Notes under the pieces: generated by a model
What the model was told of the DNA's origin: nothing
Database searches by the model: none
The model's input: only the letters and a program-made list of their open reading frames with translations
NCBI GenBank assembly: GCA_964469495.1
Contig: CAYXYY010000030.1
Location: 76,262 to 133,102, forward strand
DNA length: 56,841 nt
From: an uncultured Planctomycetia bacterium
GTDB lineage: Bacteria > Omnitrophota > Gorgyraeia > S143-82
Reading direction: 5' to 3'
Translations under genes and position numbers: made by a program
Shown here: in pieces, positions 11,926 to 45,660 of the stretch
How positions within the stretch are numbered: the first letter of the stretch is position 1
Layout of the letters: every line of letters starts with the position of its first letter

Positions 11926-12483
11926 TCATTCCTGCCTTCGGTTTAACATAACGTTTTCAATAAAAGCCCGGCTATACTTGCGTCCGGAAAAAGACCACTC
12001 CACATCTAACTTAACAACCGACGGCAAAGAACTTATAGACCTCTGCCAATGGTCGGTCTTATAAAAAAACGCGGCGGTTGAAACACCTTTAATCAATGGC
12101 TCAAATTCTCCATTTATTGTCGCCAAATTGTCATCGGCAGGAGACTCCACAGCCCTTTCCAATATACCGTTATTCAAACGATAATGAATCTCACATAAGG
12201 CATTTTTTCTGCCCTTTTTGATATAAGAAAAAAATCCAAAAGCAGAATCATTTCCCTGCGCCCCGCAACACATAGAAGAGATATCCCTTGCAAAAATTTC
12301 AGATAATATTCTCACGTCCTGACGATAAGACGACTCTATCTCGCCCCTGTGAAACATCTTATTGAATCCACGGAAAAGCAGATACGCGCTTGCTATAATA
12401 AACCCGAATATGCTGACAGCTATCAGCATCTCCACCAAAGTCATCGCTCCGCGCTTTAACAAACGCTTACCAATACACGACAT
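11926..12483 (-). CDS. Prepilin-type N-methylation domain protein (GspJ-like pseudopilin)
   Basis: Class III signal KRGA/MTLVEMLIAVSIFGFII with Glu at +5. Confidence 0.8.
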   Translation of the reverse strand: MSCIGKRLLKRGAMTLVEMLIAVSIFGFIIASAYLLFRGFNKMFHRGEIESSYRQDVRILSEIFARDISSMCCGAQGNDSAFGFFSYIKKGRKNALCEIHYRLNNGILERAVESPADDNLATINGEFEPLIKGVSTAAFFYKTDHWQRSISSLPSVVKLDVEWSFSGRKYSRAFIENVMLNRRQE

Positions 12484-15129: not shown

Positions 15130-15131
15130 AA

Positions 15132-16880
15132 TTACCTCTTCTCTATTGCGCCAAACTTACAGACCTCATAACACTGCCCGCACTTTATACATTTCTCTTG
15201 TTGTATAACATAACCTTTTTCCCTGTCTCCTGTAATCGCGCCGACAGGACAAACCCTGAAACAAGCCCCACACTTAACACACTTCTCGCTAACGATAAAG
15301 AACCTGAGCAGGCCCTGACATTTCCCAACTTTACAGGTTTTTTCCACGACGTGTTCCTTATATTCTTCCTCAAAGTACTTGAGTGTTGATAAAACAGGAT
15401 TAGGGGCAGTTTGCCCCAATCCACAAAGAGAGGCCTTCTGCATAGCAAAGGCTATCTTGCGAAGTTTATCCAAATCATTCAGGTCTCCCTTTCCCTCAGA
15501 TATCTTAGTTAGCACGTTCAACATCTGAAACCCGCCGATCCTGCACGGAGCGCACTTGCCACAGGACTCATCCACACAAAATTTCAAATAAAACTTGGAG
15601 ATATCAACCATACAATCCTCTTCACTCATCACAATCATACCGCCAGATCCCATAATAGAACCCAGCTTTTGCAAGTTCTCATAATCAACAGGGGTATCCA
15701 AAAGCCTTTCAGGAATAACACCTCCTGAAGGGCCTCCCGTCTGCACGGCCTTTATCGGCATATTATTTAATACCCCTCCGCCTATATCAAAAACAATCTG
15801 ACGCAAGGTAATGCCCATTGGCACCTCTATAAGGCCTGAATTGTTTATCTTTCCTGTCAGCGCAAACACCTTAGTCCCCTTGGAAGTCTCCGTACCAATA
15901 GAAGAAAAGGCCTCTGCTCCTTTTTCAAATATATAAGAGACATTAGCCAATGTCTCAACATTATTAATAACTGTTGGTTTGCCCCACAATCCCTTTATAG
16001 AAGGATATGGGGGACGCGGACTTGGCGTGCCTCTCTTGCCTTCAATAGATGCAATCAATGCCGTCTCCTCCCCGCAAACAAATGCACCTGCGCCCAATCT
16101 TATCTCCAATTCAAAGGAAAAACCCGTGCCGAAAATATTCTCTCCCAAAAACCCTTTTGACTTGGCATCGGCTATCGCCTTTTCAACCCTTTCAATCGCA
16201 AGAGGATATTCCGCCCTTATATAGAAGAATCCCCTTGATGCTCCGAGAGCATACCCGGCAATAATCATCCCTTCTATAACAGAATGAGGATCTCCCTCTA
16301 AAATACTCCTGTCCATATACGCGCCGGGATCGCCTTCGTCGGCATTACATATAATAAACTTCTCATCTGCCTGAGTATTCCTTGCAAAATTCCACTTCAT
16401 CCAAGTGGGAAACCCTCCACCCCCTCGGCCTCTAAGCCCGCTCGCCTTTACCTGCTCTATAACATCGTCATTAGACACTGAAAGCGCTTTTTTCGCGCCC
16501 TCATATCCGCCACTTGCAATATATTCCTCTATATTTTCAGGATCAATCAACCCGCAATTGCGTAAAACAATCCTCTTTTGAAGATTCGGCATTTCAACTG
16601 CAAGGGAATCTATTCTTTCATCGCCTTTGATGCTCTTTTCTACAATCTCTGGAATATTCTCTTCAGAAAATCCGGCATACATAATATTTTGCGGCCAAAT
16701 TCTCACAATCCAGCCTTTATTATACAAACCTATATCTGCCACCCTGATTACCTGCACGCGGTTATGAACAATCTCCGAGCGAAGGGCCTTTGCAAACAGG
16801 ATAGCAAGATCTCTGGTCCTGGCGCTCTCTTGAGAATCCGTATCCCTAACAAAGATGATTTTTTGAGTTATACCCATCAT
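15132..16880 (-). CDS. hydB: NADH/FMN-binding hydrogenase subunit (NuoF-like; HydB/HndC-like)
   Basis: SGLRGRGGGGFPT, CNADEGDPGAYMDR, GAGAFVCGEETAL, GGPSGG, ESCGKCAPCRIG, C-terminal 2x CxxCxxCxxxC. Confidence 0.94.
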   Translation of the reverse strand: MMGITQKIIFVRDTDSQESARTRDLAILFAKALRSEIVHNRVQVIRVADIGLYNKGWIVRIWPQNIMYAGFSEENIPEIVEKSIKGDERIDSLAVEMPNLQKRIVLRNCGLIDPENIEEYIASGGYEGAKKALSVSNDDVIEQVKASGLRGRGGGGFPTWMKWNFARNTQADEKFIICNADEGDPGAYMDRSILEGDPHSVIEGMIIAGYALGASRGFFYIRAEYPLAIERVEKAIADAKSKGFLGENIFGTGFSFELEIRLGAGAFVCGEETALIASIEGKRGTPSPRPPYPSIKGLWGKPTVINNVETLANVSYIFEKGAEAFSSIGTETSKGTKVFALTGKINNSGLIEVPMGITLRQIVFDIGGGVLNNMPIKAVQTGGPSGGVIPERLLDTPVDYENLQKLGSIMGSGGMIVMSEEDCMVDISKFYLKFCVDESCGKCAPCRIGGFQMLNVLTKISEGKGDLNDLDKLRKIAFAMQKASLCGLGQTAPNPVLSTLKYFEEEYKEHVVEKTCKVGKCQGLLRFFIVSEKCVKCGACFRVCPVGAITGDREKGYVIQQEKCIKCGQCYEVCKFGAIEKR

Positions 16881-17176
16881 TACTCCATTATTAAAAATAT
16901 ATGGTCGTTAAATACATTATGCGCGCACAAATGATTTTCAACTATCTTCAAGGCAATATCTTTATCCACTTTGCCATAAACAACCCGTGGTAAACCGGCT
17001 ATGTTCACCTCAACCAAAGGTTCCGCAAAACACATTCCCAAACAACCAGTCTTCTTCACCTCAACGGCCAAATCGCGTTTTAAGATTTCTTCCTTCAAAA
17101 CATCATACACATCCTGCGCGCCAGCTGCCAAACCGCAAGTGCTCATTCCTATGCGAACGTATCCTTTACTCGACAT
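16880..17176 (-). CDS. Thioredoxin-like (2Fe-2S) ferredoxin subunit (HydD/HndB-like)
   Basis: VRIGMSTCGLAAGA...TGCLGMCFAEPLVEV...YGKV; coupled to hydB. Confidence 0.88.
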   Translation of the reverse strand: MSSKGYVRIGMSTCGLAAGAQDVYDVLKEEILKRDLAVEVKKTGCLGMCFAEPLVEVNIAGLPRVVYGKVDKDIALKIVENHLCAHNVFNDHIFLIME

Positions 17177-17179
17177 AAA

Positions 17180-17650
17180 TCACTTCCTTTGAGACTCCAT
17201 ATACTGTGACAACACACCAGAAACCTCTTCGGGACGCACCTTCCCGAAAACCTTATCGTCCACCATAATCACAGGAGCCAGGCCACAACACCCAAGGCAC
17301 CTAACAACCTCCAATTGGAAAAGCCCGTCTTCCGTTGTCCCGCCTTCATCAACACCCAAAAGCTTTTTAAGCTCCTCTATCAATAACGGCGCGCCCTTCA
17401 AATAACAAGCCGTCCCCATGCACACAGAAATCTTGTGTTTCCCCGGAGGATTCAAGTTAAAGAGGTGATAAAAACTGATTACCTCATATATCCTTGCCAA
17501 AGGTATGTCCATAACCTCAGACAACGCCAAAGCGGCATCCCTGGGGATATACCCATATTCATCTTGAAGCTCATGAAGAACCATTATGAGATTGCCCCTC
17601 TTGCCTTCCCACCTCTTTGCTATGGATTTAATCTTTTCTTGATTGCTCAT
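17180..17650 (-). CDS. hydC: NuoE-like 2Fe-2S subunit (HydC/HndA-like)
   Basis: LHELQDEYGYIP, VCMGTACYLKG, RCLGCCGLAP. Confidence 0.93.
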   Translation of the reverse strand: MSNQEKIKSIAKRWEGKRGNLIMVLHELQDEYGYIPRDAALALSEVMDIPLARIYEVISFYHLFNLNPPGKHKISVCMGTACYLKGAPLLIEELKKLLGVDEGGTTEDGLFQLEVVRCLGCCGLAPVIMVDDKVFGKVRPEEVSGVLSQYMESQRK

Positions 17651-18143: not shown

Positions 18144-19895
18144 TTATAACAAAGCTTTACTTCTAAGAAAGGCTGTTATACCTGAGGATTGGCTTCTATC
18201 TGCCTCGGAAGCTATGGGTTTGTGTAAAAAGGCCTTTAAATCACCTGAGGTTTTCAGAAGACACACTTTCCCTAATGAAACCTGCTGTAAAAGGAATCTT
18301 TTAAACTTCGGCCTGTTTGGCAGAAAAGGCGCCCAGACCCCGACATCAAGCCCCGCGTTAATTGCCTCTGATATCATGGAAATGCTGTCAGGTGTGATAA
18401 TGGCCTTTCTAGAGACATAAAAAAAGGCATCTAATATACCTTCTGGATTATATCTATTGGCAATAACCTTGTATTGAAAATCGCGCTTGTCTATCAATAA
18501 TTCAACATCGGCAGGGGTCCTGCGCGACGTTGTAATTAATACCCGTTTGTTGCTATTCGAAAGCGTATTTAACATATCTTCTATCCCGGCAAAGTGGATA
18601 TCATATCCTTTTGTATTGCCGCCTATTAGCACGCAAACATTGTCTTCGTCTTTTTTTAATTTAAACTCCTTCGCAAATTGGCCTGCCTTATCCTCATCAA
18701 AGAAACACAAAGCCCCGTCTATTAAATAACAATTCCTTCCCCTGCCTCTATCGTGCCGCATGGCAAGCACTGCATCTATAAATGGCGAAAACATACCCGG
18801 GCTCATTACGACACACGATTTTGCCTGATTATACCTTTTCAAGAATACATTTAATCCCGACAAAGATGACCCTGTTGATACGACCAAATCCGCATTTTGC
18901 CTTAAAATCGGCTCTAACCCGTTTCTTTTCAGAATATACTCACCAAATCTTATCGGCAAAAATCCAATTACCTTTATCGTCCAGCTAATATTTCTCAAGA
19001 CAATCTGATTTATTTGAATGTCCTTATCCGGATAGGCGCGCTTTATATATTCTAATAATGCAAAAGACTGCTTCTCATGCCCCTTTTTCCCATCGCTTAA
19101 GACTAATACATCCCTTTGATTAGAATACTTCCAACGCTTATAACTCCACAGATATTGTTCTGGATAGCTGTTTACCTCTTCCTCTAGAACCTCGTTTAAT
19201 TTCTTGGCGATCTCTTTTTCTCCTTCCTCATAGGAAATCTTATCGTAAACATGCAGACGATATTTTCCCCTTTCCCTAATACAAAAACACGGCACTAAAT
19301 CGGTCTTTGTCTTTTTACAGAGCCACAACAGCCCCTTGGGAATCGGAGCAGGCCTTGAAAAAAACTGGGCAAAGACTCCATCTCTGCCTGTATGGTCAAA
19401 GACAACGGCTGCGGTTAACCCTCTTTGCATTTCTCGAACAAGGGCCCTTAAACCGGCAGGATCACCTGCCTTGTATATTTCTGCACCAGTCATAGCGCGT
19501 TGTTGGTAAATAAAGAACAACACAGGGCTTTTTCTCTCATTGACTATTACTCCATATCTTTTGAAAAACCTTCCTGCGGATAGATTTGCAGCCTCCCAAT
19601 TACCTATATGGGCAGTGGCAATAATATAGTTCTGATTCACATCCATTGAAGAATTCGCAGCATCTTGAATAAGGGCAGATATATGACTTGACTCTATACC
19701 CAATAGTACGTCCCAAAACACCGCACAAAAATGCCGCACAGCACTAAAAATTATTTTGTTGTAAAATCCATATTCCTTGTCCGGAAAGGCAATCCTCAAG
19801 TTTTTATACAAAACCTTTCTGTTGACGAACGGGAAAACCAGCAATACGGAAAGAAACGCGGCAATCTTCTTGATTATAGATCTCGATATAGACAT
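18144..19895 (-). CDS. Fusion of a lipid A late acyltransferase (LpxL/HtrB family) and an ELM1/GtrOC1-family putative glycosyltransferase
   Basis: N-half AHIGNWE, PEQYLWSYKRWK; C-half VLVLSDGKKGHEKQS, TSRRTP, TPDSISMISEA. Start moved to ATG 19895 because the longer ORF runs into tRNA-Leu. Confidence 0.85.
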   Translation of the reverse strand: MSISRSIIKKIAAFLSVLLVFPFVNRKVLYKNLRIAFPDKEYGFYNKIIFSAVRHFCAVFWDVLLGIESSHISALIQDAANSSMDVNQNYIIATAHIGNWEAANLSAGRFFKRYGVIVNERKSPVLFFIYQQRAMTGAEIYKAGDPAGLRALVREMQRGLTAAVVFDHTGRDGVFAQFFSRPAPIPKGLLWLCKKTKTDLVPCFCIRERGKYRLHVYDKISYEEGEKEIAKKLNEVLEEEVNSYPEQYLWSYKRWKYSNQRDVLVLSDGKKGHEKQSFALLEYIKRAYPDKDIQINQIVLRNISWTIKVIGFLPIRFGEYILKRNGLEPILRQNADLVVSTGSSLSGLNVFLKRYNQAKSCVVMSPGMFSPFIDAVLAMRHDRGRGRNCYLIDGALCFFDEDKAGQFAKEFKLKKDEDNVCVLIGGNTKGYDIHFAGIEDMLNTLSNSNKRVLITTSRRTPADVELLIDKRDFQYKVIANRYNPEGILDAFFYVSRKAIITPDSISMISEAINAGLDVGVWAPFLPNRPKFKRFLLQQVSLGKVCLLKTSGDLKAFLHKPIASEADRSQSSGITAFLRSKALL

Positions 19896-19912
19896 ATTTT
19901 TAAAAAATTTTA

Positions 19913-19996
19913 TGCCGAAGGTGGGACTCGAACCCACACGAGGTTACCCCCATCGGTTTTTGAGACCGACGCGTCTGCCAGTTCCGCCACTTCGGC
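19913..19996 (-). tRNA. tRNA-Leu (anticodon CAA)
   Basis: GCCGAAG acceptor stem, D-loop GGCGGAACTGGCAGACGC, anticodon arm TCGGT-CTCAAAA-ACCGA, long variable arm, GGTTCGAGTCC; CCA not encoded. Confidence 0.96.
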
Positions 19997-20032: not shown

Positions 20033-21355
20033 TCAACAGTGTTTACTCTTTCGCTCAAAATCATCGAGAAAAGGATATGCATCAGATTCATAATGAACCA
20101 CTTGCGTTGAAACACCGCAAAATTGCGCAATAACCGCAGCAACCTGTCCATCGTCTATGTAACAGTCTTTTCTAGTCTGGATGTGCACCTTTATCCCATC
20201 GCCTTCGCGTTCGACAAAAAACCTTCCGGTGATGACCTGCGCAAGGCCTGTATTATTAAATAAGGCCTCTCTCACCCTTGCTATTGAAACCCTTTTGTTT
20301 ACATTGACCTCTATTTGGCAATCCCTTCCCCAAAAGAACACAAACGGCAGTCTATTGCCTGAGAACTCGTGATGAATGCCAAAATCCTTTAGTGTATTTT
20401 CCACTTCCTTCGCAGAAAAGACAACACATTTATCACCTATGGCGTATCTTATTAACGGCAGCGGACGTTTTCCCATAGGGGTTATAACCAATTCATTCCC
20501 GATAGACTCTAAAAAATATAAATTGGGATAATACTGGAATACCATGGGAAAGAAATCCAAGTCATCCCCTATTGAAAAGGCCTTTAACAATCCAGGTATT
20601 TTCCCCATAGCATCCCTTATAAACCTGCTAAAAGGGGTTTCATGCATAATATTTAGCCCCAATTCCGCTGTTCCAAACGAGGAAAACATATCATTTACAG
20701 ACAATCGTTCAAGAAAATATCTCCTAAGGCCCTCGGAAAGGAATTCTCCTCCGACAATCAGTTTCAGATCCAATTGCCTTGTATATTCTCCAACGGCATC
20801 GTCTTCCAAAACAGACTTAACAAATAACGCATCTCCCAGCACGATAACCTGATGAAATAATTGCGCAGCGTTGCGCAAGGCCTCTATCGCGCAGTCCTTT
20901 CTTATACCCACGGAAAGCGTACTGCAAATTTGGCTATCCACGTTAATTCCCATAGGCAACAGATTCAAAATCAACGTCTTTTTTCCCCTTACTGAAAAAT
21001 ACCTATCCAAAATCCAGTCAATCAGCACAGGGGCCTTTGCCATTTCCTTTTTATCAAACACGCCAAAGGAAAACACGCCACTTGTCCCGGAGCTTGGCAT
21101 AAAAACAAAGGACTTATATCCGGGGACTATCCATTGACGAAAATTGGGAAACACGTCTGTTTTACGCAAAATAGGTATTGCAAAAAAATCTTTATGCTGC
21201 AAGATTCTGTTAATAGAGATGCCTTTGGATTCCAAAAACCTCCGATAACCCGACGAATTATTATAGGCGTATGTAAACCTGCGAAATAATGATTCCTCCG
21301 TCGGAGATTTAGATAAATTCGACTCCAATATCTGTTCAATGGATTTTCCAAACAT
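20033..21355 (-). CDS. Adenylate-forming enzyme of the phenylacetate-CoA ligase (PaaK)/CoF-synthetase-like family
   Basis: PSSGTSG (A3 loop), IVGGE, SSFGTAELG, LPLIRYAIGD, FWGR. Confidence 0.82.
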   Translation of the reverse strand: MFGKSIEQILESNLSKSPTEESLFRRFTYAYNNSSGYRRFLESKGISINRILQHKDFFAIPILRKTDVFPNFRQWIVPGYKSFVFMPSSGTSGVFSFGVFDKKEMAKAPVLIDWILDRYFSVRGKKTLILNLLPMGINVDSQICSTLSVGIRKDCAIEALRNAAQLFHQVIVLGDALFVKSVLEDDAVGEYTRQLDLKLIVGGEFLSEGLRRYFLERLSVNDMFSSFGTAELGLNIMHETPFSRFIRDAMGKIPGLLKAFSIGDDLDFFPMVFQYYPNLYFLESIGNELVITPMGKRPLPLIRYAIGDKCVVFSAKEVENTLKDFGIHHEFSGNRLPFVFFWGRDCQIEVNVNKRVSIARVREALFNNTGLAQVITGRFFVEREGDGIKVHIQTRKDCYIDDGQVAAVIAQFCGVSTQVVHYESDAYPFLDDFERKSKHC

Positions 21356-22059
21356 CAGATCTTCGGCCTTAAATTCTCATCCAAATCTTGTGTAAAATAA
21401 TCAAAATAATGCGGATGGTAAAACGCCATCTCCTTTTCAACATCGTCTAATTTTATTCTATAAGGATGCACGATACCCATACACTGCACTTCATCTCCTA
21501 TTCGTTCAAAGACAATATGCGTTTTTGACAGCAGTTTCCAAAGACTTGGTTCCATCAAAACCAACCACCACTTAATATGGTTCTTTTTGCAATACGTATA
21601 TATGGCCCTGTACAGACCAAAAACCATCGGCCTTATTCTGCGAAAAGGCGCGCGCGTATTGTCAACGTAGGCAGCAGCGTCATAATAAGCGCCATCTCCT
21701 TTCCTGCGACGAAAGGTTTTGCTAATAACAAGTCTTGATATCTCCGCTACATCGGAGGCTTCAACCCCCCTCATCTTATCTTTTACAAATGGCGCGTATT
21801 TAAATATGGGCAGGCCCTTTTCTTTATTTAGGACCAATCGGGTATAACCTACCAGTTCATTCTCTATATATATCCCAAAGTGCACACTCTGCTCGTCGTA
21901 TTCGTCCAGTTCACGGCCATCAGGATAATCTTTTTCTGCAATAAATCCCCTTTCAAGGCAATAAACACGAAACCGCAATTGCGCAGCATCATTGATTACC
22001 TCTTCCCACGACAATTGCTTAAAGACAAACTCTGTATTGGCTATTTTTTCACGTCTCAT
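21355..22059 (-). CDS. GNAT acyltransferase of the LuxI/FeeM (N-acyl amino acid synthase; exosortase-associated acyltransferase-like) fold
   Basis: LRFRVYCLERGF, RELDEYDEQSVH, GYTRLV, AEISRLVISKTFRRRKGDG. ATG 22059 preferred (AGGGG upstream); the ORF is open to TTG 22119. Confidence 0.82.
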   Translation of the reverse strand: MRREKIANTEFVFKQLSWEEVINDAAQLRFRVYCLERGFIAEKDYPDGRELDEYDEQSVHFGIYIENELVGYTRLVLNKEKGLPIFKYAPFVKDKMRGVEASDVAEISRLVISKTFRRRKGDGAYYDAAAYVDNTRAPFRRIRPMVFGLYRAIYTYCKKNHIKWWLVLMEPSLWKLLSKTHIVFERIGDEVQCMGIVHPYRIKLDDVEKEMAFYHPHYFDYFTQDLDENLRPKI

Positions 22060-22115
22060 GTTATAAGCGCCCCTATCCATAAAATAATGTATCACACATA
22101 GCTTGTTTGGGCAAA

Positions 22116-22955
22116 TCAATTAAGAAAATTTCTTAAGGCGGCAAAAAAAGAATCCTTATCCTCAAAAAACACATCATTGTGCAATCCGTGTTTCAATATA
22201 ACCATGTCTTTCATTGAAGAAGGACAATGCTCAAATAAATCCTGCCCCATAGACAGAGGTATTAGTTCATCTTCCTTACTATATACAAATAGGACAGGAA
22301 TCATTATATTTTTAATCTTGTGTATCGAATCGAACTTATATTTAAGTAATAATCCAACCGGTAAAAAAGGATAAAGTCTTTTGGAGATATCACCAAGAGA
22401 CGTAAAAGAGGCATCCATTATCAATTTCCCTTTATTAATCGCCATAGACCAAACCAAATCTATGGCCACAGCGCCTCCCAGAGATCTGCCATAGATAACT
22501 ATTTGCTCAGGATTGATATTCAGCGCGTTAATCATATAATCATAGGCAGACCTGGCATCTTGATACAATCCTTCTTCTGTCGGGATTCCAGTACTCTTGC
22601 CGTATCCACGATAGTCAATCACAAAAATACTAAGGCCAAAGTCATAAAGGGCATTTAAAAGATCTATCCTATCGCTCAAATTCCCTGCATTGCCGTGCAG
22701 AAGAAGCACAGTCATCTGCGCATTTGGGTTTTCCAAGTACCAGAAACAGATATCTTCTCCGCCTGATCGCAAAAATCCCTCTTTAAAATCCAGGCCCATA
22801 TCCCTTGGACAGGGCGAATTTGGCTGCCATTTACCCGGCTGAAAAAGCAATTCATCCTGCCGAAAAAACAACCATAAACACACAAAGATGTAAACCAGTA
22901 GCGCAATAATTAAAATAACTGCTAACAGCTCAATTAAAAGCTTTGCCATGGACAA
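22116..22955 (-). CDS. Membrane-anchored alpha/beta hydrolase (ABHD13/17-, Bem46-like)
   Basis: N-terminal TM, LLHGNAGN, DYRGYGKSTG, nucleophile YGRSLGG, D in KEDELIP, H in HGLHND. Confidence 0.88.
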   Translation of the reverse strand: MSMAKLLIELLAVILIIALLVYIFVCLWLFFRQDELLFQPGKWQPNSPCPRDMGLDFKEGFLRSGGEDICFWYLENPNAQMTVLLLHGNAGNLSDRIDLLNALYDFGLSIFVIDYRGYGKSTGIPTEEGLYQDARSAYDYMINALNINPEQIVIYGRSLGGAVAIDLVWSMAINKGKLIMDASFTSLGDISKRLYPFLPVGLLLKYKFDSIHKIKNIMIPVLFVYSKEDELIPLSMGQDLFEHCPSSMKDMVILKHGLHNDVFFEDKDSFFAALRNFLN

Positions 22956-24030
22956 GTTCTTTCATTAATCCCTTAACAGATAGAATTTTATCCACTCTAT
23001 AAGCATTAGAACCAACTGTAAACAAGGGTTTTTCATCAGAGCCGTCAAAATACGAAGTAGAGGTAATCAAGCCATTACATATACAAAAGTAATCTTTGTT
23101 GTTATCCATTGCAGGACAATAGTTTTTAAACTTAACATAACCCAAATTACACAAACAAGGCCGTTTCTGTTGCAATGCATCCTGATACATAGGCGACTGT
23201 TTAATAAGCCTAAATAACATTCCACACGGCGAACCAGGCCTATAGGCAACGATTATATCCTCCTTGGTGCAATTAACAACTGCTTGTTTAAACTCATCCG
23301 TCGCACTGCTTTCTTCCGTAGCCAGAAAACGCGTTCCCATTTGAACACCCGAAGCGCCCATTTTTAATATCCTTACGATGTCTTCGTGTGTATATATACC
23401 TCCTGCGGCTATAACAGGTATATTCCCATAATTTTTGGTTGTTTCTAAAACATCTGTCAACAAATTTTCCAGTTTATTCTCTTCCTTTTCTATGTCTTTA
23501 AGGTCTTTCCATCCCAAATGCCCTCCAGCTAAAGGGCCTTCAACAATAACGGCATCCGGCAAGAACCCGAATCTCTTCCACCTCTTGCAAATAATGTCCA
23601 ATGCCCTTCCAGAAGAGACAATAGGGATCAAAGCCGTCTTGGCCTTTGATTTATAAGACGAGACTATTTCTGGCAAATGGACAGGCAGGCCAGCGCCTGA
23701 AATAATGGCATCAACCTTGGCATCCAGCGCGCCTTTCACCGCATCTGCATAATCGCGAAACAAGGCAACCATTATATTAATGCCAATAACACCGCCATTC
23801 GCTAATGCCTTTGCATCCTCTATTTCGCGCCTAGTAGCCTGCTGAGTATCAAGCTGTTTACCAACACGCCGGCTGGTTAAGATGTCCAACGCAACACTGG
23901 ATAAAACACCCATCCCGCCTTCTTTGGCAACAGCGCCAGCCAAAGGCGCCATAGACACGCCAGCGCCCATACCGCCCTGTATAATCGGCACACGCAATAC
24001 AAAATCTTTTATTTTTAACGAAGGAAGCAT
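22930..24030 (-). CDS. FMN-dependent oxidoreductase of the nitronate monooxygenase/FabK/FabX family with Cys-rich C-terminus
   Basis: PIIQGGMG, VIVEGPLAGGHLG, PVIAAGGI, GVQMGTRF, C-terminal SPCG..CLC..YCP..FCICNGL..GSNAYRVDKILSV. Confidence 0.88.
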   Translation of the reverse strand: MLPSLKIKDFVLRVPIIQGGMGAGVSMAPLAGAVAKEGGMGVLSSVALDILTSRRVGKQLDTQQATRREIEDAKALANGGVIGINIMVALFRDYADAVKGALDAKVDAIISGAGLPVHLPEIVSSYKSKAKTALIPIVSSGRALDIICKRWKRFGFLPDAVIVEGPLAGGHLGWKDLKDIEKEENKLENLLTDVLETTKNYGNIPVIAAGGIYTHEDIVRILKMGASGVQMGTRFLATEESSATDEFKQAVVNCTKEDIIVAYRPGSPCGMLFRLIKQSPMYQDALQQKRPCLCNLGYVKFKNYCPAMDNNKDYFCICNGLITSTSYFDGSDEKPLFTVGSNAYRVDKILSVKGLMKELVHGKAFN

Positions 24031-24130: not shown

Positions 24131-25372
24131 CTATAAGGCCTTGCCAATAAGATACAATCTGCCATTTTTATCAAGATCTGCTACTTTAACTGAACAAAAC
24201 TCTCCTATGGCTTTCCTGCAGCCACTGACCTTGATTTTTACATAATACGGGTTTAAACCGTAAACAACTTCAGAAGACCTTTCTTCAATAATGATATCCT
24301 GTTCTGTTTCGATAAAGGCAGCCATAAACTCTTTGGCCCATTCCTTCGACCGTTTAATCAGGATATTTGCGCGATTCTTCTTAACAAGAGCGGCAACTCC
24401 CAAATCTTCGTTCTGCTGCTCAGCGGCAGTTCTAGGCCTGGGGCTAAAAGGGAATACATGCAAACGCATAGGCCGTATACATCCCAAAAACTCCAGCGTT
24501 TTATTGAACTCTTCTTCCGTCTCCCCCGGGAAACCAACCATCACATCCGTACTGATAGCAATGTCAGGCAGCAGATTTCTGCACATGGAGATTATTCCTT
24601 CGTATTTTTCTTTTGTATACGGCCTGTTCATGCGAGCCAAAACAGTATTACTGCCACTTTGTATAGGCACGTGCAAATGCCGGCATGCCGCAGCACATTC
24701 CTTCATAGCCCTTAATAATTCCGGCGTAATATCCCTTGCCTCTATGGAACTCAACCTTATTCTTGGAAAACCTATCTCCTGCCCAATATATATTAACTCG
24801 TGGAGAAATGGGCATCTCCCCAATGATATTCCAGTAAAAACAATCTCCTTATAACCGCTATTGAATAAGGCAGCCAACTCCCTTTTTATCTCTCCTTTGT
24901 CTCTAATACGAATGTCTGCTCCTCTTAAGTACGGGATATAACAATATGAACACATCATATCGCACCCATCTTGAACCTTGACAAATGCCCTGTGATGTCC
25001 TTTTAGAAAACTAATAAAAGGAACAGATGAAGGCGCGAGTTCCAAAAACCGCGCAACAATGTTAAATATAGAATCTTTTTCCCTCTGCTCCACAAGATAA
25101 TCAAAATCCCAATCTTTTGGCGCGTCTTTAAAAGCAGAAGCGCTGCATCCAGTAAGAATCAGAAATCTGCAATTCTCTCGCATCGCGCGCAGGGCCTTGC
25201 CTGCTTTTTTATAAGATCTGTTTGTCACAGCGCACCCGTTTACAATGCACACATCGGCAAAGCCCTCATCTATCTCCTTAAGCCCCATAGAGATAATGCC
25301 CTCTCTGATTAATTGTCCCTCGTATTGATTGACTTTACACCCAAATGTCTTGATTATAAACGTATATGCCAT
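24131..25372 (-). CDS. mtaB: tRNA methylthiotransferase, MtaB type (radical SAM)
   Basis: KTFGCKVNQYE, VNGCAVT, VKVQDGCDMMCSYCYIP, DVMVGFPGETEEEF, HVFPFSPRPRT. Confidence 0.9.
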   Translation of the reverse strand: MAYTFIIKTFGCKVNQYEGQLIREGIISMGLKEIDEGFADVCIVNGCAVTNRSYKKAGKALRAMRENCRFLILTGCSASAFKDAPKDWDFDYLVEQREKDSIFNIVARFLELAPSSVPFISFLKGHHRAFVKVQDGCDMMCSYCYIPYLRGADIRIRDKGEIKRELAALFNSGYKEIVFTGISLGRCPFLHELIYIGQEIGFPRIRLSSIEARDITPELLRAMKECAAACRHLHVPIQSGSNTVLARMNRPYTKEKYEGIISMCRNLLPDIAISTDVMVGFPGETEEEFNKTLEFLGCIRPMRLHVFPFSPRPRTAAEQQNEDLGVAALVKKNRANILIKRSKEWAKEFMAAFIETEQDIIIEERSSEVVYGLNPYYVKIKVSGCRKAIGEFCSVKVADLDKNGRLYLIGKAL

Positions 25373-25381
25373 TCTAAAATC

Positions 25382-27118
25382 CTAACAACTCAGTAAAGGT
25401 TCTTTATAGACCTCCGGCACCATTACAGCGTCTTTAGTGCCGCGCATCTTTAGACAAATCTCATAAATATCATCCCTATGATTGGCTTGCGCGCTATCCA
25501 ACAACAGGAGACACTCGCAATAATGCTTTCTCCTTTTTCTCTCCTGTTTCGGGACGTAAACAGGCATATATATTGTCTTGGACAACCCCCTTTCTTCGAT
25601 CTTGTTGCAAAACAATCCTGCCTTTTTCAGTGCCCTGCCCAAAGAAGATGCCTTAAAAATCAACCTTACCATTTCTCCAAAAGGAGGCAAATGAAAACGC
25701 TTCTTCAAAAGGCATTCCTTTTCCAACACATCGTCATTTGTTATCTCCACAAGCCCGGTATGCACGTATAACTTCTTTTTTGCCCGGTTGGAAGCAGAAT
25801 TAATAAAACCTATGGCCAAATCCTTTGCGTAGAATACATCCAAGTTTAACACCGCATCAAGCCCTATCAATAACACATTATCAAATCTATGCGTGATATT
25901 CTGCCAATGCTCAAAAAAGTATACGCCTTTTTGCGCTTTGTCATCGTCAGATAAAGCCTCATAAACAGGCAGCCCGGATAATCTGCTCTTTATAAAATTA
26001 AGGAGCTTTTGACTGCCCCAGCCCTTCAACGTTATAGCTATTGCACGGCAGTACGTGCACTTATAGTCCCACTCTATAGCCTTATCGCACGATTTACAAA
26101 ACAAGACATCCTTCTTTCCTATCTTTTTCAACACAAACGGCCTTGAGCAAACATCACAGACCAGAGTCCTTTTACAGGAATGACAAACAATACGTTTAGC
26201 AAACGACTTTCCTATGGCAAAAACTCCCCAAGAAAGGCCATTTGCCACATCCTTTTTTATCTCTTCCTCAACAAAATAGGGAAAGGCCTTATGCGTCATG
26301 GCATCTATCGCAACGACCTCCACATTATTACGGACCTCCTCATGCAGGAAATAACGCCCGCCTCCATGTTTCGCCCTTATAAGGAGCAGGTCGCGGACAT
26401 TATATCTTGGGAATACCTCCTGTCTGTAAACGTCCAGCCACCCGTTCTCAACAAAAATCAGTTCATTTCTTAATATCGGGAAAAGGGCAAGATGCCTTGT
26501 GCCTATAACTACACACCTTTCCCTGGAAAGGGAATTTATCATCTTATCTAACTGCTTATAAACAACGTTATTATGATAGAGAAAAACATCCCCAAGTCCT
26601 CGTTGATTAAAGGCCGCGCAGAGTTCTTCTGCCTTGCGCAGACTTTCAACTATTACTAAAACTGGGCCATGATGTCCTTGCATCTGACTTAAATAATGGG
26701 CGCGAAAATCAGACAATCCGGATTTGTGGATTATAAACTCCCCTTGTGATGCGAGTTTTAAATGGGGTAAAGAGGGAAAATCTCTTTTGGCGACTGACTT
26801 TAGTGCCCTTGGCAATGCCCCAATCACCATTTCGCCATGGCCTGCCATAAAGGCCTCCGCCGACTCCATAAGAAAATCCAAACACACGTTTGAAAACCAC
26901 GGCCGTGAATCCAGAACATCAATGATGCCGCGCACTTTAGCGCTTGGCAGGTGCGAATCAGCCATAGTTTTAACCACAACTGCCAAGGCCATCTTGCGGC
27001 CAAAGGGCACCCTTACGCGGCTGCCAATTACAACCTCATGGCCGCCTGTTTTATAATCGAACAACTTATTCACAGGCGCATCAACCAAAACCTTGCACAC
27101 TTTATTATGAGAAGCCAT
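25382..27118 (-). CDS. priA: Primosomal protein N' with degenerate helicase motifs
   Basis: 3'-DNA binding domain (LFDY..GSRVRVPFG), VIGTRH, RQEVFPRYNVRD, four CxxC Zn ligand pairs, GWGSQK, FHLPPF; no Walker A or DEEH. Confidence 0.85.
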   Translation of the reverse strand: MASHNKVCKVLVDAPVNKLFDYKTGGHEVVIGSRVRVPFGRKMALAVVVKTMADSHLPSAKVRGIIDVLDSRPWFSNVCLDFLMESAEAFMAGHGEMVIGALPRALKSVAKRDFPSLPHLKLASQGEFIIHKSGLSDFRAHYLSQMQGHHGPVLVIVESLRKAEELCAAFNQRGLGDVFLYHNNVVYKQLDKMINSLSRERCVVIGTRHLALFPILRNELIFVENGWLDVYRQEVFPRYNVRDLLLIRAKHGGGRYFLHEEVRNNVEVVAIDAMTHKAFPYFVEEEIKKDVANGLSWGVFAIGKSFAKRIVCHSCKRTLVCDVCSRPFVLKKIGKKDVLFCKSCDKAIEWDYKCTYCRAIAITLKGWGSQKLLNFIKSRLSGLPVYEALSDDDKAQKGVYFFEHWQNITHRFDNVLLIGLDAVLNLDVFYAKDLAIGFINSASNRAKKKLYVHTGLVEITNDDVLEKECLLKKRFHLPPFGEMVRLIFKASSLGRALKKAGLFCNKIEERGLSKTIYMPVYVPKQERKRRKHYCECLLLLDSAQANHRDDIYEICLKMRGTKDAVMVPEVYKEPLLSC

Positions 27119-27122
27119 AGCA

Positions 27123-30100
27123 CTATCTTTCCACGCGAAGAGGCCCTTTATGCAATCTCACTTTGCCATCTTTTATAGAGAGATAGCATCTATGCTCTGC
27201 CAATTTATTCCCTCTATCATCTGATATCTGCACAACGACAGGCAATTTGGTGAACAAAACTGCCAAAAGCTGTTTTTTGCTCATTCCTTCAAAATAATCC
27301 AGATCTCCACTAAAGGCCTTTGACATTGCTGCGCATAATTCTTTCTTCTTCTTTCTTTTATACTCCATCACGTTGAGAGGCATTGTGACCTTCACGTCAA
27401 CTATCGCGGCATTCCCTGTCAACTCATTGGCAAGATCCCAAAACTCTTTTTTTAACCGAAGAGAAGAAGGTAAAACCCCTCCTCTTTCTCGTAAAAGCTC
27501 TTCTAAAAAGACGTCTCCCATATTAAACCTCACCCTGTATTCAACAGCGAGAGGAGCAACACATACTATTTTCTCAAGAGAACGCTTAAAAGCAAAAGGA
27601 AGGAGGTCTGCTTTTACAAACAATCCTTCGCTTTTTAATTTCGAATTCATCTCTTCTATTTCTTCAGTGGTTAAGTCTACTGCGTCCGGGATTGCGATAG
27701 AGTACAGCAGAGTGCCTTCCTTTAGAGAAAGATACTCAATCACAAAATCGTCCATCTCTATGCCTATATTTTTCAAATGCATAGACAAATCCGCCATACG
27801 GGCAAGGAAACTTACGTGCCCTTCATCCTCTGCCACAAAAGAATAATAAGTCGAGGCCGGAACAAACGCAGTATATTTATCTGCCTTAATAATGCGAGAC
27901 GTTATTTCCGGATAAGATGAGTCCAAAAACTCACAATTTTCCATCAAGGAAGCCCTCTTAAACAAGGCCTTTACCACGTCCTTATAGACCAAACGGCTTT
28001 GTCCCGACAACACATCCCTTTCTGCCACAGGCATGTCAAATGGCAAAATCTTCTGTTTATACGGGAAATACCTTTTGCCTGCGCTTGAAAAGCGAACCTG
28101 TTTAAATTCTCCATTAAACATCTTATTAGATCCTGAATTTAAAGGCATATCTTTTGGTTTTACGAGCGTGTTCTCATTCGCAATAACAAACATGGCCTTA
28201 TGAAACGAAAATGCGTCTAATAATACAGATGTTATCGCATCCGGATAAAACACCTGTGAATTAGAGGAGATAAAGGGGATTTTGATATCTTGCATCATCC
28301 AGTAGACAGATATGCCGCTTCTAAAACCTAAACATTTTATCAAAAGCGGAAGCCATTTAACAGCCCTTCCTCCGGGAACAAAAATACCGCCACGCCTTAT
28401 GGATTTCAGCATTTCTGAATTCAGCTCTCCTGCCGGAATAATCCGTATGTTTTTCAATGCCAAGATCCTCTGAACCGCAGACCATTGAGGCGCATCAGAC
28501 AAAACGATTCCGCCCTGTGGCATCTTACGCCATAAATTAACAAGCCTTTTCGCCTGATAAATGGCCTCCGCTTCTATCTCCAGATCATTAAAATACCTCT
28601 GTTCCATCGTTCTAAGATAATCTATATCCTTATACGCCAAGTCAAAATCAAAATCGCTATTTAAAGCAACGATTTGTTTCATATCAGGCCGCACAGGCCG
28701 TTTGTTGGGCAAACGCATCATTATCAAACCATCTGATATATCGTCTAATCGTTCATTAAGAACAGATTTGGACCTTAAGAATCTGGCCATATCAGTAGAG
28801 ATAGAATTTGCCAATGATACGACATAGTAAACAGAATCTTTGTTTGATTCAAACAATCGAGAGTCTATCCCCCGCAACCCAACGACAATATGGAGACCCT
28901 TATGGGACATGAAAGCATCAACACCTTCTGTCAAAACAAGCCTATTTTTTTCAATAGAACCCCTTATATCCATCTCAGGAATAACAGCATCGCTTACAGA
29001 GATCAGGTGCTGTAAAATATCTTCGTCTACGTAAAATAATCCGTCGGAAATAAGCGCAATAGAGACCTTTTTGTCAAGCTCCTTACACAAAATAGCGCCT
29101 GCCATAAGTGCGGCAGCCGATCCAAACGATCCTTTTGCAAGAATAGAAATCTCTTCTGATTCCTTGATATCCTTTGCCATATTAAATCTGTTATCCTGAA
29201 AAAGGGTTCTTCTTGATTCTATTGATGCAACATATAACGGCACGTCTTTAAAATTCGGTATGGCCGCTAACAGGGGCTTGGCAGAACCTTTTATCAGCCA
29301 GTCAATGCTTGAATCGACAGGAAAGTCTTTTATTGCTTTGATTTTTACCAAAAAAGACAAAACCTGCGACGCAATATCCAAACGAGTTTTAGAAAGTTCC
29401 ACCATTTCGACAGGCGCAAGGATACGTAAAACCTGCGCATAACTGCGTTGAAAAATGGATAATAACTCCTTATCCTCTCCAAGATCCGTATAGGCTTCTA
29501 AGAAATTCCCGCCCAAAGAAAAGAAATACTGCCACTGGCAATATAAAATCAACATCTCCTCTATGGCCCTGTCCTTTGGCATGCGGCCATAGGCCAGATA
29601 AAATGCCTCAAAAAGAGAGCCGAATTTATCTTCTTGGGCACCTAATCGTTTCTTAAATTCCCTTAAAATAGGCTTAACCCTCTCATCTCTTGAAATAGCG
29701 GCATGCAAACCTTCATGGAATCTGACCATTGCCTCTATCTGTCTGCCTGATATAGGTTCTTGCATGTTAAAATAAAGGGAAAACGCATCAGCCAAACTAT
29801 TCCACATCTCCCTGACGGCATCTCTATTAAGCGGCGCTATCTCAAAAAACAATCTCATTTTCCTCGCCTTAATATCCCACATCCCCGGCCCATAACTCTT
29901 AATAAAATCCCAAACTGATTTGGGAATATTCACTCTCTCGCGTAAAGATGCAATCCATTTATCCCTAACAACGATCGGCATACAAAATGCCTTTGCCCGC
30001 AAACTAAAATTCGTCAGGTAATCAACCGTTTTGACATACGTCTTACCCGGGGCAAGGGACAACAATGGCAGGACAGGCATATAAACAGAATTCGTATGGC

Positions 30101-30854
30101 GATAATTTATTATCGGTTTTATAACACTGAAGTCCGGCACGTTTCTGCCTAAGGGATATACGAACCTGACATCAACATGGCCTTTCAATTCCTTTTCCAA
30201 TTTCTCAAAATGATAACCGCCGATAACAGCAACATAAAGTCCGGGGTAATCCTGAATCTCATTGAGAATGGTTTTCGCAAAGGCAAGAGTCCTCTCGTCA
30301 GCGCTGTCATAAAAATCAACCACAGGTTTTATCCCGGGCAGATAATCTAAATTATCTATAGATCGCAACGCCTTCCAGCGTTGATACGAAAGTCTCAACC
30401 GCATTGCATCAAATAAAATTTTATCCAGCAATACCGTTGAGGAAAACATTCCGAATAAGGCATTATAAGAGGCCGATTCTTTTACAAGAGAAATATACGC
30501 ACCCAAAGCCTTAAGGTAAACGCCCGGATTTTCTATGCCTATGGCTTTGACATGATTTTTGTATGCAAAAAACTCTGCGCCTGATAAAAGTCCCAAATCC
30601 AAAAGGCGCTTGGCTTGTTTCTCTGTCCTTAAAAAAGAAAAATCACTCTTTCCAAAACCGCCTTCCAAAAATATACCATCTATTTCTTTGGCCTTATTGA
30701 TAGCATCTAATCTCTCATATATGGCCTTCTGCACGTAAGGATTATTATGGATATCAGCTATTATGATTAATTGCGTTTTTGCCGCAAAAGCAGCAGAACA
30801 CAGAAAAAACACGAAGGCAATAACATAATAAAAAATAAAATTTCTACGTCTCAT
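27123..30854 (-). CDS. Large exported multidomain protein (1243 aa) with TraB/ChaN/EreA-like N-domain and HExxH motif; function unknown
   Basis: Sec signal MRRRNFIFYYVIAFVFFLCSAAFA; ADIH36, LE64G, GIE108, GGYH215; HEGLH at aa 380-384; uninterrupted 3.7-kb ORF. Confidence 0.85.
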   Translation of the reverse strand: MRRRNFIFYYVIAFVFFLCSAAFAAKTQLIIIADIHNNPYVQKAIYERLDAINKAKEIDGIFLEGGFGKSDFSFLRTEKQAKRLLDLGLLSGAEFFAYKNHVKAIGIENPGVYLKALGAYISLVKESASYNALFGMFSSTVLLDKILFDAMRLRLSYQRWKALRSIDNLDYLPGIKPVVDFYDSADERTLAFAKTILNEIQDYPGLYVAVIGGYHFEKLEKELKGHVDVRFVYPLGRNVPDFSVIKPIINYRHTNSVYMPVLPLLSLAPGKTYVKTVDYLTNFSLRAKAFCMPIVVRDKWIASLRERVNIPKSVWDFIKSYGPGMWDIKARKMRLFFEIAPLNRDAVREMWNSLADAFSLYFNMQEPISGRQIEAMVRFHEGLHAAISRDERVKPILREFKKRLGAQEDKFGSLFEAFYLAYGRMPKDRAIEEMLILYCQWQYFFSLGGNFLEAYTDLGEDKELLSIFQRSYAQVLRILAPVEMVELSKTRLDIASQVLSFLVKIKAIKDFPVDSSIDWLIKGSAKPLLAAIPNFKDVPLYVASIESRRTLFQDNRFNMAKDIKESEEISILAKGSFGSAAALMAGAILCKELDKKVSIALISDGLFYVDEDILQHLISVSDAVIPEMDIRGSIEKNRLVLTEGVDAFMSHKGLHIVVGLRGIDSRLFESNKDSVYYVVSLANSISTDMARFLRSKSVLNERLDDISDGLIMMRLPNKRPVRPDMKQIVALNSDFDFDLAYKDIDYLRTMEQRYFNDLEIEAEAIYQAKRLVNLWRKMPQGGIVLSDAPQWSAVQRILALKNIRIIPAGELNSEMLKSIRRGGIFVPGGRAVKWLPLLIKCLGFRSGISVYWMMQDIKIPFISSNSQVFYPDAITSVLLDAFSFHKAMFVIANENTLVKPKDMPLNSGSNKMFNGEFKQVRFSSAGKRYFPYKQKILPFDMPVAERDVLSGQSRLVYKDVVKALFKRASLMENCEFLDSSYPEITSRIIKADKYTAFVPASTYYSFVAEDEGHVSFLARMADLSMHLKNIGIEMDDFVIEYLSLKEGTLLYSIAIPDAVDLTTEEIEEMNSKLKSEGLFVKADLLPFAFKRSLEKIVCVAPLAVEYRVRFNMGDVFLEELLRERGGVLPSSLRLKKEFWDLANELTGNAAIVDVKVTMPLNVMEYKRKKKKELCAAMSKAFSGDLDYFEGMSKKQLLAVLFTKLPVVVQISDDRGNKLAEHRCYLSIKDGKVRLHKGPLRVER

Positions 30855-30861
30855 ATAAAAT

Positions 30862-30870
30862 ATTATAACA
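30862..30870 (-). promoter_or_regulatory. Extended -10 placed for a leaderless transcript of the 1243-aa gene
   Basis: TGT-TATAAT-ATTTTAT-ATG; no SD. Confidence 0.55.
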
Positions 30871-30909
30871 GATGATCAGATAAACCATACAATTTTGTAT
30901 ATCCTACAA

Positions 30910-45636: not shown

Positions 45637-45660
45637 ATCTCCCTCTATATAAAAGACAGA

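Follow-up and report, generated by a model that had tools for sequence, protein, structure and literature searches.

The window analysed here is a 56,841-nucleotide stretch of contig CAYXYY010000030.1 (assembly GCA_964469495.1), and its positions 27123-30854 encode, on the minus strand, a protein of 1243 residues to which we refer as the target. It is best read as a compact member of a lineage-specific family that joins a TIKI-like head to variable tails. We consider it probable that the target is a Sec-exported dual hydrolase, in which the TIKI-like head is combined with an HExxH site, within a family of Omnitrophota and Endomicrobium. The gene and its export-type N-terminus were located as follows:

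27123-30854, minus strand: complete gene, 1243 codons plus stop (open reading frame (ORF) list and translation).
30783-30854, minus strand: signal peptide or signal-anchor, residues 1-24 (MRRR, hydrophobic core, AFA/A), from hydropathy and the analogous N-termini of relatives.

The ORF is uninterrupted, and its 1243 residues are counted from the first ATG after a stop. Its codon usage correlates at 0.90 with a reference of twelve neighbouring genes, its GC values at the three codon positions (GC1/2/3) are typical for the window, and a search for internal repeats in the protein found none. The N-terminus reads MRRRNFIFYYVIAFVFFLCSAAFA/AK, with three arginines, a hydrophobic core of ~19 residues and an A-x-A motif. 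By hydropathy this is the sole hydrophobic segment of the target, and equivalent N-termini are present in its relatives. A predicted signal peptide or uncleaved signal-anchor is plausible. A lipoprotein reading was rejected, because F-F-L-C misfits a lipobox. Searches of Pfam, NCBIfam, PADLOC, PHROGs and the PDB sequences returned zero matches to the target, with no Pfam match at E ≤ 1; a phage or defence origin was rejected on the empty PADLOC and PHROGs results. The first-pass annotation, made from the DNA letters, had described a 1243-residue protein at this place (with the strand unstated), a Sec signal peptide, several motif-bearing regions and no recognisable full-length family. This description holds throughout: the ORF is exact and its codon usage native, the export-type N-terminus is seen by hydropathy whether it is cleaved or retained as an anchor, the protein looks exported and multi-motif, and the databases gave it no family.

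Relatives were found by an exhaustive HMMER search with target residues 26-1225 as the query (query position equals protein position minus 25), which recovered 46 proteins. P0002 (1263 aa) is a full-length relative with 42% identity (E = 0). P0003 (1631 aa) and P0004 (1632 aa) match target residues ~28-624 and ~29-480, align further in a global alignment and carry an extra C-terminal CheR-type methyltransferase. About 40 proteins of 162-6037 aa match only target residues ~28-155, and in all these relatives the match to this module sits just behind an N-terminal signal or anchor. The long carriers include P0042 (6037 aa), P0022 (5473 aa), P0033 (2936 aa), P0031 (2410 aa), P0029 (2291 aa) and P0017 (2005 aa). 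Their tails vary: P0033 has a Ser/Thr kinase, P0022 a HATPase_c domain together with methyltransferases, and the module protein P0023 a calcineurin-like phosphoesterase. Homologue searches by word index brought back either the query alone or a single 243-aa fragment, and a scan of a genome collection with the target as a single protein found nothing. When the PDB was searched with profiles of the N-module, of the HExxH region and of the family as a whole, the sole match was CheR, for the tail of P0003 and P0004.

All family members with a named source, mostly flagged as partial, come from Candidatus Omnitrophota (P0017, P0018, P0059, P0019, P0034, P0057 and P0039) or from Endomicrobium sp. of the Elusimicrobiota (P0036 and P0040). 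In the genome scan, the P0004 type was found in 'Candidatus Omnitrophota bacterium isolate S143_95', and P0004 and P0055 derive from an Omnitrophota metagenome-assembled genome. Directly upstream of P0004, on an Omnitrophota contig of 782 kb (GCA_027052805.1, JALUEM010000002.1; locus L003, 1-7841), lie an 8047-aa gene and a 1655-aa gene. The 1655-aa neighbour is a signal-peptide protein with no Pfam match; on comparison it is unrelated to the target, and kinship was rejected.

Conservation within the N-terminal module is concentrated in two blocks, which hold the following features:

30135-30779, minus strand: alpha/beta module at the N-terminus, TIKI/TraB/Ere-like, spanning residues 26-240 and interrupted by a helical insertion (~110-200) (AlphaFold2 (AF2) model, alignments A3 and A5, hhalign, Foldseek).
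30747-30755, minus strand: D34-I-H36, acid-x-His at the C-terminal end of strand 1, candidate catalytic His1, invariant in 45/45 proteins.
30663-30665, minus strand: E64, candidate catalytic Glu2 after strand 2, 28 residues after H36, 98% conserved.
30531-30575, minus strand: motif pair SGAE94...IGIE108 (helix, then strand 3), with E94 93% and E108 98% conserved.
30291-30293, minus strand: R188, 27 residues before H215, invariant in A5.
30210-30221, minus strand: G212-G-Y-H215, candidate catalytic His2 at the end of strand 4, GG[FY]H in every long-enough member.

Across 45 proteins D34, H36 and Q42 are invariant, E64, G88, G92, E94, G106 and E108 are at least 93% conserved, and I45, G65 and Y113 are 87-89% conserved. 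The second block, FY...R[DEN]...GG[FY]H...P, is present in every member long enough to contain it. It follows D-x-H after 173-199 residues in the target, P0002-4, P0021 and P0030, and after 358-441 residues in other members, including the proteins of 5-6 thousand residues. The presence of both blocks in every long-enough member indicates that the module is one domain with a variable insertion. Over both blocks, D34, H36, Q42, E108, R188, G212, G213, H215 and P234 are invariant (A5); otherwise the proteins carrying the module share ~25-30% identity.

The string D-x-H...Q..I...EG...GAE...GIE...Y, which the first-pass annotation had picked out and linked to large Omnitrophota/Elusimicrobiota proteins, equals the conserved skeleton across the 45 proteins. 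The link is borne out, as the carriers found by HMMER reach 6037 aa and the named ones are Omnitrophota or Endomicrobium. The same annotation had suggested a compact member of that class and proposed a profile search of the N-domain as a check; homologues do exist among proteins of up to 6037 aa, and the architecture fits. The longest carrier found here has 6037 aa, against >30,000 aa for the giants of the literature. The target itself, at 1243 aa, falls short of the extreme sizes of that class, which run from thousands to tens of thousands of residues.

The fold of the module was assessed by criteria for the TIKI superfamily taken from PMC6254334 and PMC7979712, in which the core is a central parallel beta-sheet flanked by alpha-helices. 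An AF2 model of the whole protein from a 5-sequence alignment was poor (mean predicted local distance difference test (pLDDT) score 49.6), whereas a model of residues 26-275 from a 25-sequence alignment reached a pLDDT of 84.8 and a predicted template modelling (pTM) score of 0.83. In the model, strands 28-34, 60-63, 104-107, 206-212 and 228-232 alternate with helices around the helical insertion at ~110-200, and D-x-H, E64, E108 and GGYH lie at or just past the C-terminal ends of strands 1-4. The top Foldseek probabilities against the PDB were those of 5t09 (HopBA1, 0.82), 2rad_A and 3b55 (BcR135, 0.75 and 0.63) and 6a7h (RRSP, 0.41), and matches to BcR135 recurred with both models. The structures 5t09, 2rad/3b55 and 6a7h are all TIKI-superfamily folds (PMC6254334, PMC7979712), and 6A7H is the Vibrio RRSP endopeptidase, a MARTX effector (PMC6254334).

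The spacing of the conserved residues agrees with known catalytic sets of this superfamily, namely E3900, H3902, E3930 and H4030 in RRSP (PMC6254334), E47, H50, E78, R261 and H289 in EreC (PMC7979712), and the pair H85 and E113 in BcR135 (PMC6254334, PMC7979712). The distance of 28 residues from H36 to E64 is identical to that in RRSP, EreC and BcR135 (3B55/2RAD), and it is exactly 28 in 20/25 family members. R188 precedes H215 by 27 residues, against 28 in EreC, and D34-x-H36 has the acid-x-His arrangement of E3900-x-H3902 in RRSP. The family resembles RRSP, EreB/EreC and BcR135 in possessing a 2His/2Glu-type set: H36, E64 and H215 are present and conserved, with Asp as the first acid.

Profile comparison provided statistical support for homology to TraB/GumN. 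The reference alignment was built from eight bona fide family members taken from annotated entries, namely YbaP of E. coli and seven homologues carried on plasmids. Against it, A5 scored 32.5 in hhalign (P = 0.0018, 113 columns), compared with 13.1 ± 2.0 (maximum 20.3) for 60 column shuffles and 16.4 for the reversed alignment. R188 and H215 fall in register with TraB 'RN...GA.H'. The module appears to be a new, divergent family of the TIKI/TraB/Ere superfamily that retains the catalytic set with Asp in place of the first Glu.

Two other readings of the module were rejected. A metallophosphoesterase reading of D-x-H lacks GDxxDR, GNHE and a Pfam Metallophos match, and it is also ruled out by the predicted three-layer alpha/beta fold, which is not a beta-sandwich. 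For a P-loop nucleoside triphosphatase (NTPase), the smallest Foldseek E-values belong to Get3, dTMP kinase and BioD, but at probabilities of only 0.08-0.28. A Walker A motif is lacking: 'EGGFGKS' follows strand 2, and its Lys is kept only in the four closest relatives.

Behind the module, the longer relatives share a second conserved region:

29355-29972, minus strand: mostly helical region with HExxH, residues ~295-500, candidate zincin-type metallopeptidase module, conserved in P0001-P0004.
29703-29717, minus strand: H380-E381-G-L-H384 (HExxH), invariant in all four long relatives.
29556-29561, minus strand: E432-E433, acidic pair, candidate third metal ligand, invariant in A4 and A6.
29046-29162, minus strand: beta-alpha-beta segment, residues ~565-603 (ISILAKGSFGSAAALMAGAILCKELDKKVSIAL), seven invariant columns.
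27126-29354, minus strand: C-terminal ~740 residues (501-1243), no assignable fold in searches or models.

FHExxH is common to all four long relatives and is followed, 48 residues after H384, by an invariant EE and then QW; HExxH is conserved among relatives at 23-42% identity. The target has 15 histidines, and only H36, H215, H380 and H384 are invariant; these are the four predicted catalytic ones. In the whole-protein AF2 model, in which the region has a pLDDT of ~60-84, HExxH lies on a predicted helix (~370-389, moderate pLDDT) and E432-E433 on a later helix. HExxH and EE are a candidate second, zinc-dependent peptidase site. The helical setting of HExxH, together with the invariant acidic residues that follow 48 residues further on in a later predicted helix, resembles that of gluzincin-type metallopeptidases, from which the region differs in matching no peptidase family by sequence or fold and in having no convincingly predicted upstream beta-sheet subdomain. 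Given the lack of a family or structure match, we infer the zincin-type site from the motif alone.

Conservation is strongest in target residues 1-600. The segment at ~565-603 is modelled as strand-helix-strand (pLDDT ~55-68). Its glycine-rich loop varies among the relatives, which leaves nucleotide binding unsupported, and a Rossmann dinucleotide-binding reading was rejected. Residues ~600-1040 are convincingly common to P0002 only and partly to P0005. The latter, a 484-aa fragment encoded on a 1522-bp JGI contig, is homologous to residues ~706-997 and then runs on into a metallo-beta-lactamase-fold domain. This fusion means that the middle region of the target occurs in another architecture. 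Towards the C-terminus, residues 1161-1200 have 62% identity to P0002. A conserved basic patch, YKRKKKKE (residues ~1165-1172, 27340-27363), lies inside this stretch, the most P0002-conserved of the C-terminal part.

Several observations weigh against the target as a dual hydrolase with a TIKI-like head. The Foldseek comparison with the PDB gave no significant match (all E > 0.02, TM 0.32-0.35; for the TIKI folds of top probability, E ≥ 0.03 and TM 0.3-0.35). The AlphaFold and Foldseek check proposed in the first-pass annotation delivered a confident N-domain model whose top-probability matches are TIKI folds, but none of these is significant and the whole-protein model is poor. In hhalign the supported match is confined to the module's second half; for the first half, where 'GaE...GlE' is paired with TraB 'GiD...LE', the alignment is weak (P = 0.11). 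Among 25 module sequences no Pfam model of the TIKI clan exceeded its gathering threshold; one member matched PF04187 (ChaN) at E = 0.021, and none matched PF01963 or PF05139. The module would therefore be a new family of the TIKI superfamily rather than a member of PF01963, PF04187 or PF05139. The first acidic residue is Asp (D34) rather than Glu throughout the family, and the candidate active site is defined by residue conservation, spacing and predicted strand positions. The Glu2 position is Gly (FVGGG) in 6/7 members of the P0002 cluster (P0002, P0048-P0053; 90% identity), which suggests that catalysis may be dispensable or E64 non-essential; one member of the cluster reads FVEGG, and Glu is also found in the related metagenome fragment L005 (1690-1700). 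Some TIKI-fold proteins, such as ChaN and PMT, are non-enzymatic (PMC6254334, PMC7979712). For the remainder of the protein, the HExxH module has no fold or family match in Pfam, NCBIfam or PDB profile searches, and the signal peptide was called by hydropathy and motif inspection rather than by a dedicated predictor.

In the favoured mechanism, the target would be exported via Sec as a soluble protein with no membrane segments beyond the N-terminal signal or anchor. The mature N-terminus would begin directly with the TIKI/TraB/Ere-type hydrolase domain, with a predicted active site of D34-x-H36, E64, R188 and H215. By analogy with Ere and RRSP, the His-Glu pair would activate water to attack the carbonyl of a peptide or ester, with the Arg stabilising the oxyanion. 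The helical HExxH and EE module would come next as a second, zinc-dependent peptidase site, and the last ~740 residues, which are lineage-specific, would presumably serve in substrate binding or targeting. The ORF, its export-type N-terminus, the family, the conserved residues with their spacing and the profile homology to TraB/GumN are direct results; catalytic activity, metal dependence, protease as opposed to esterase chemistry, location after export and substrate are what we infer.

The upstream region and the downstream neighbours of the target contain the following:

30862-30870, minus strand: extended -10 promoter-like element TGTTATAAT, read from sequence.
25382-27118, minus strand: PriA-like gene, 4 bp after the target stop, adjacency kept in L001.
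24131-25372, minus strand: MiaB-like radical-SAM gene, third of a conserved triad, downstream of the PriA-like gene.

The extended -10 element is perfect (30870-30862) and lies within the 55-bp upstream spacer (30855-30909), ending 7 nt before the ATG. Reading the upstream sequence directly, we saw no Shine-Dalgarno sequence ahead of the target ATG. With the -10 element so close to the ATG, the transcript may therefore be leaderless or near-leaderless. The same nonamer recurs upstream of the orthologues in L001 (~6511-6519) and L005 (~1410-1418). A promoter of its own, as proposed in the first-pass annotation, is plausible for the target: the element is kept in three loci, but a generic promoter scan did not list it. 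The co-orientation with housekeeping neighbours noted there is also correct.

The triad of target, PriA-like and MiaB-like radical-SAM genes is also found around P0002 in GCA_053991635.1, and the gaps between target and priA-like gene are 4-8 bp in the two genomes, which are ~50% identical. Between them the PriA-like proteins share 47%, the radical-SAM proteins 52% and the targets 42% identity. Since the target diverges about as much as its neighbours, it appears to be a conserved lineage gene rather than a fast-evolving effector. The genes upstream of the target differ between the window and the P0002 locus, and P0003 and P0004 sit among other neighbours, without priA linkage. The PriA-like protein (25382-27118, minus strand; L001 10353-12095) is short, with 578 aa, and Pfam sees its 3'-DNA-binding domain only. 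Its score of 126 bits against an NCBIfam PriA cut-off of 763 is far below all PriA cut-offs. A conserved Walker A/DExH helicase motif is absent in both genomes, while the Cys-rich zinc-finger region is kept, and the protein may be a helicase-dead PriA derivative.

A scan of all sizeable window ORFs found no GspD/E/F, PilZ or secretion cluster, and no second copy of the module was found in the window or in the flanks of related loci. There is a lone pilin-like gene (11926-12483) ~15 kb from the target, and the envelope genes PagL and lipid A acyltransferase lie within ~10 kb of the target. The gene content of the window, which includes an FeFe hydrogenase with NuoF- and NuoE-like subunits, lipid A acyltransferase, PagL and division and cell-wall genes, indicates a diderm anaerobe.

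Four other explanations of the target were weighed. It could be a host- or prey-directed effector, the reading raised in the first-pass annotation, as a small sibling of the giants that is secreted beyond the cell and degrades host or prey surface proteins or structures. The N-module is common to large exported proteins of Omnitrophota and Endomicrobium, and the long members carry tails (protein kinase, HATPase_c, S-adenosylmethionine (SAM) methyltransferases) that need cytoplasmic cofactors yet belong to proteins that look exported, which for these members fits delivery into another cell. P0004 adjoins the 8047-aa gene in an Omnitrophota genome, bacterial toxins and effectors with a TIKI fold exist (RRSP, HopBA1 and PMT; PMC6254334), and giant Omnitrophota proteins have been proposed to target cell walls (doi 10.1101/2023.11.21.568195). 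We nevertheless regard an effector as unlikely, because the target sits in a housekeeping context with no adjacent secretion, pilus or PilZ genes, diverges no faster than its PriA and radical-SAM neighbours, and was found to have no adhesin, dockerin or glycoside-hydrolase domains; nothing in the window speaks for this role directly. An esterase resembling Ere or BcR135, acting on a non-protein substrate (a lipid, a polysaccharide substituent or a small molecule) in envelope or exopolymer remodelling, would account for the recurrent structural match to BcR135, for the envelope genes nearby and for the Arg-His2 spacing, which matches EreC and its metal-independent ester hydrolysis (PMC7979712). 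However, the statistically supported homology is to TraB/GumN, discussed as a protease fold (PMC6254334), the adjacent HExxH points to peptide chemistry, and the acid-x-His spacing matches RRSP rather than Ere; such a function seems to us quite improbable.

The head might instead be non-catalytic, a binding, anchoring or trafficking domain that directs the export or surface retention of variable cargo. The module is always found right after the signal or anchor, and the tails are highly variable. Polymorphic secreted proteins with N-terminal trafficking domains show just such a head-plus-variable-tail architecture. The E/G polymorphism at Glu2 in the P0002 cluster points the same way, as do non-enzymatic TIKI folds (PMC6254334, PMC7979712), including haem binding by ChaN and the C1/C2 part of PMT. 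What makes a non-catalytic head very unlikely is that D34, H36, R188 and H215 are invariant, and E64, E94 and E108 at least 93% conserved, in proteins that are otherwise so divergent, an active-site-like pattern; moreover, PMT lacks the 2His/2Glu set (PMC6254334), whereas the target family keeps it. Finally, the topology could be inverted, with an uncleaved anchor, a cytoplasmic bulk and intracellular substrates, perhaps in connection with the co-transcribed PriA-like and radical-SAM genes. A membrane anchor and a mostly cytoplasmic chain are reported as the prediction for many long Omnitrophota proteins (doi 10.64898/2026.06.07.730766), and at ~19 residues the hydrophobic core is longer than signal peptides usually have. 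The relatives with SAM-dependent methyltransferase tails and the tight adjacency to the priA-like gene in both genomes are likewise compatible with this topology. By the positive-inside rule, a basic N-terminus before a hydrophobic core directs the chain N-in/C-out, and this is what MRRR followed by the core predicts. The A-x-A cleavage motif and the missing priA linkage of P0003 and P0004 also speak against an inverted arrangement, which we consider highly improbable.

The dual hydrolase that we favour resembles TraB/PrgY/GumN proteins (PF01963, e.g. E. coli YbaP) in the profile homology with Arg and the GxxH His in register, in the order of strand-His, ~26-28 residues, strand-Glu, G-x-[DE]...strand-E and R[DN]...GxxH, and in a predicted extracytoplasmic position behind an N-terminal signal or anchor. 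It differs in its first motif ([Q/A]-D-x-H compared with G-[ST]-x-H in TraB), in the placement of the helical insertion, which ranges from ~70 to ~300 residues, in the absence of a Pfam-level match, and in the fusion of the module to very long tails, TraB/GumN proteins being single-domain proteins of ~260-400 aa. From RRSP, Ere and BcR135 the module is set apart by the Asp in place of the first Glu and by structural matches that are non-significant, with TM ~0.3. RRSP acts inside host cells and needs an N-lobe, and the Ere proteins are cytoplasmic esterases with a four-helix minor lobe, both unlike the target.

Giant Omnitrophota proteins have been described with N-terminal regions that contain no identifiable domains (West-Roberts et al. 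2023, doi 10.1101/2023.11.21.568195; doi 10.64898/2026.06.07.730766) and with tails rich in methyltransferase and kinase domains (same sources), and neither of these preprints on long Omnitrophota proteins mentions a TIKI-type module. The giant genes have been reported near type II secretion, pilus and PilZ genes (doi 10.1101/2023.11.21.568195). Common ground with these proteins lies in the exported or membrane-associated N-terminus, in the multi-enzyme tails of the family (methyltransferase, histidine-kinase-type ATPase) and in the named family members from the same phylum; the target departs from them in its length and in its housekeeping context outside any secretion, pilus or PilZ neighbourhood. 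The TIKI superfamily itself is known. In the libraries and papers searched, we found no description of this family, of its position after the export signal in very long proteins, of its restriction so far to two phyla or of the TIKI-plus-HExxH architecture.

These comparisons extend the TIKI/TraB/Ere superfamily to a new architecture in a poorly known part of the bacterial tree, in a family restricted so far to two phyla of small-celled bacteria. The long and giant Omnitrophota proteins are a current puzzle, for which the module offers a testable handle in the form of a ~210-residue domain with five candidate catalytic residues, and the target is small enough for laboratory study, unlike its relatives of 5-6 thousand residues. 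A bolder reading, which we think a poor bet, is that the head is a membrane-proximal protease that processes itself, or that releases or helps deliver cytoplasm-type enzymatic tails into a partner cell. If true, ultra-small bacteria that depend on hosts (Omnitrophota, Endomicrobia) would possess a class of polymorphic multi-enzyme proteins, exported by Sec, that has so far gone unrecognised. Such proteins would follow a MARTX-like logic built on a TIKI protease, with kinase, methyltransferase, ATPase, phosphoesterase and metalloprotease tails, and the window protein would be the minimal two-protease form of the class.

Other gene groups of the window, all on the minus strand, were noted in passing. 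The ORF at 18144-19937 (597 aa) fuses a lipid A biosynthesis acyltransferase to an ELM1-type (mitochondrial-fission ELM1) domain. Translation probably begins further downstream, because the GTG start listed for this ORF makes it share 25 nt with tRNA-Leu (19913-19996, minus strand). Four genes at 20033-24030 encode a phenylacetate-CoA-ligase-like protein (440 aa, weak), a FeeM-like N-acyl amino acid synthase (GNAT), an alpha/beta hydrolase and a nitronate-monooxygenase-like protein, and may form an acyl-amino-acid or lipid biosynthesis cluster. At 13384-17650, the FeFe hydrogenase large subunit, a NuoF-like flavoprotein and a NuoE-like 2Fe-2S protein stand in a row, the gene complement of a trimeric, electron-bifurcating-type hydrogenase. 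At 43726-46368, a CHASE2-SpoIIE (PP2C phosphatase) sensor adjoins a STAS-HATPase_c fusion, a pair that looks like a partner-switching regulatory module.

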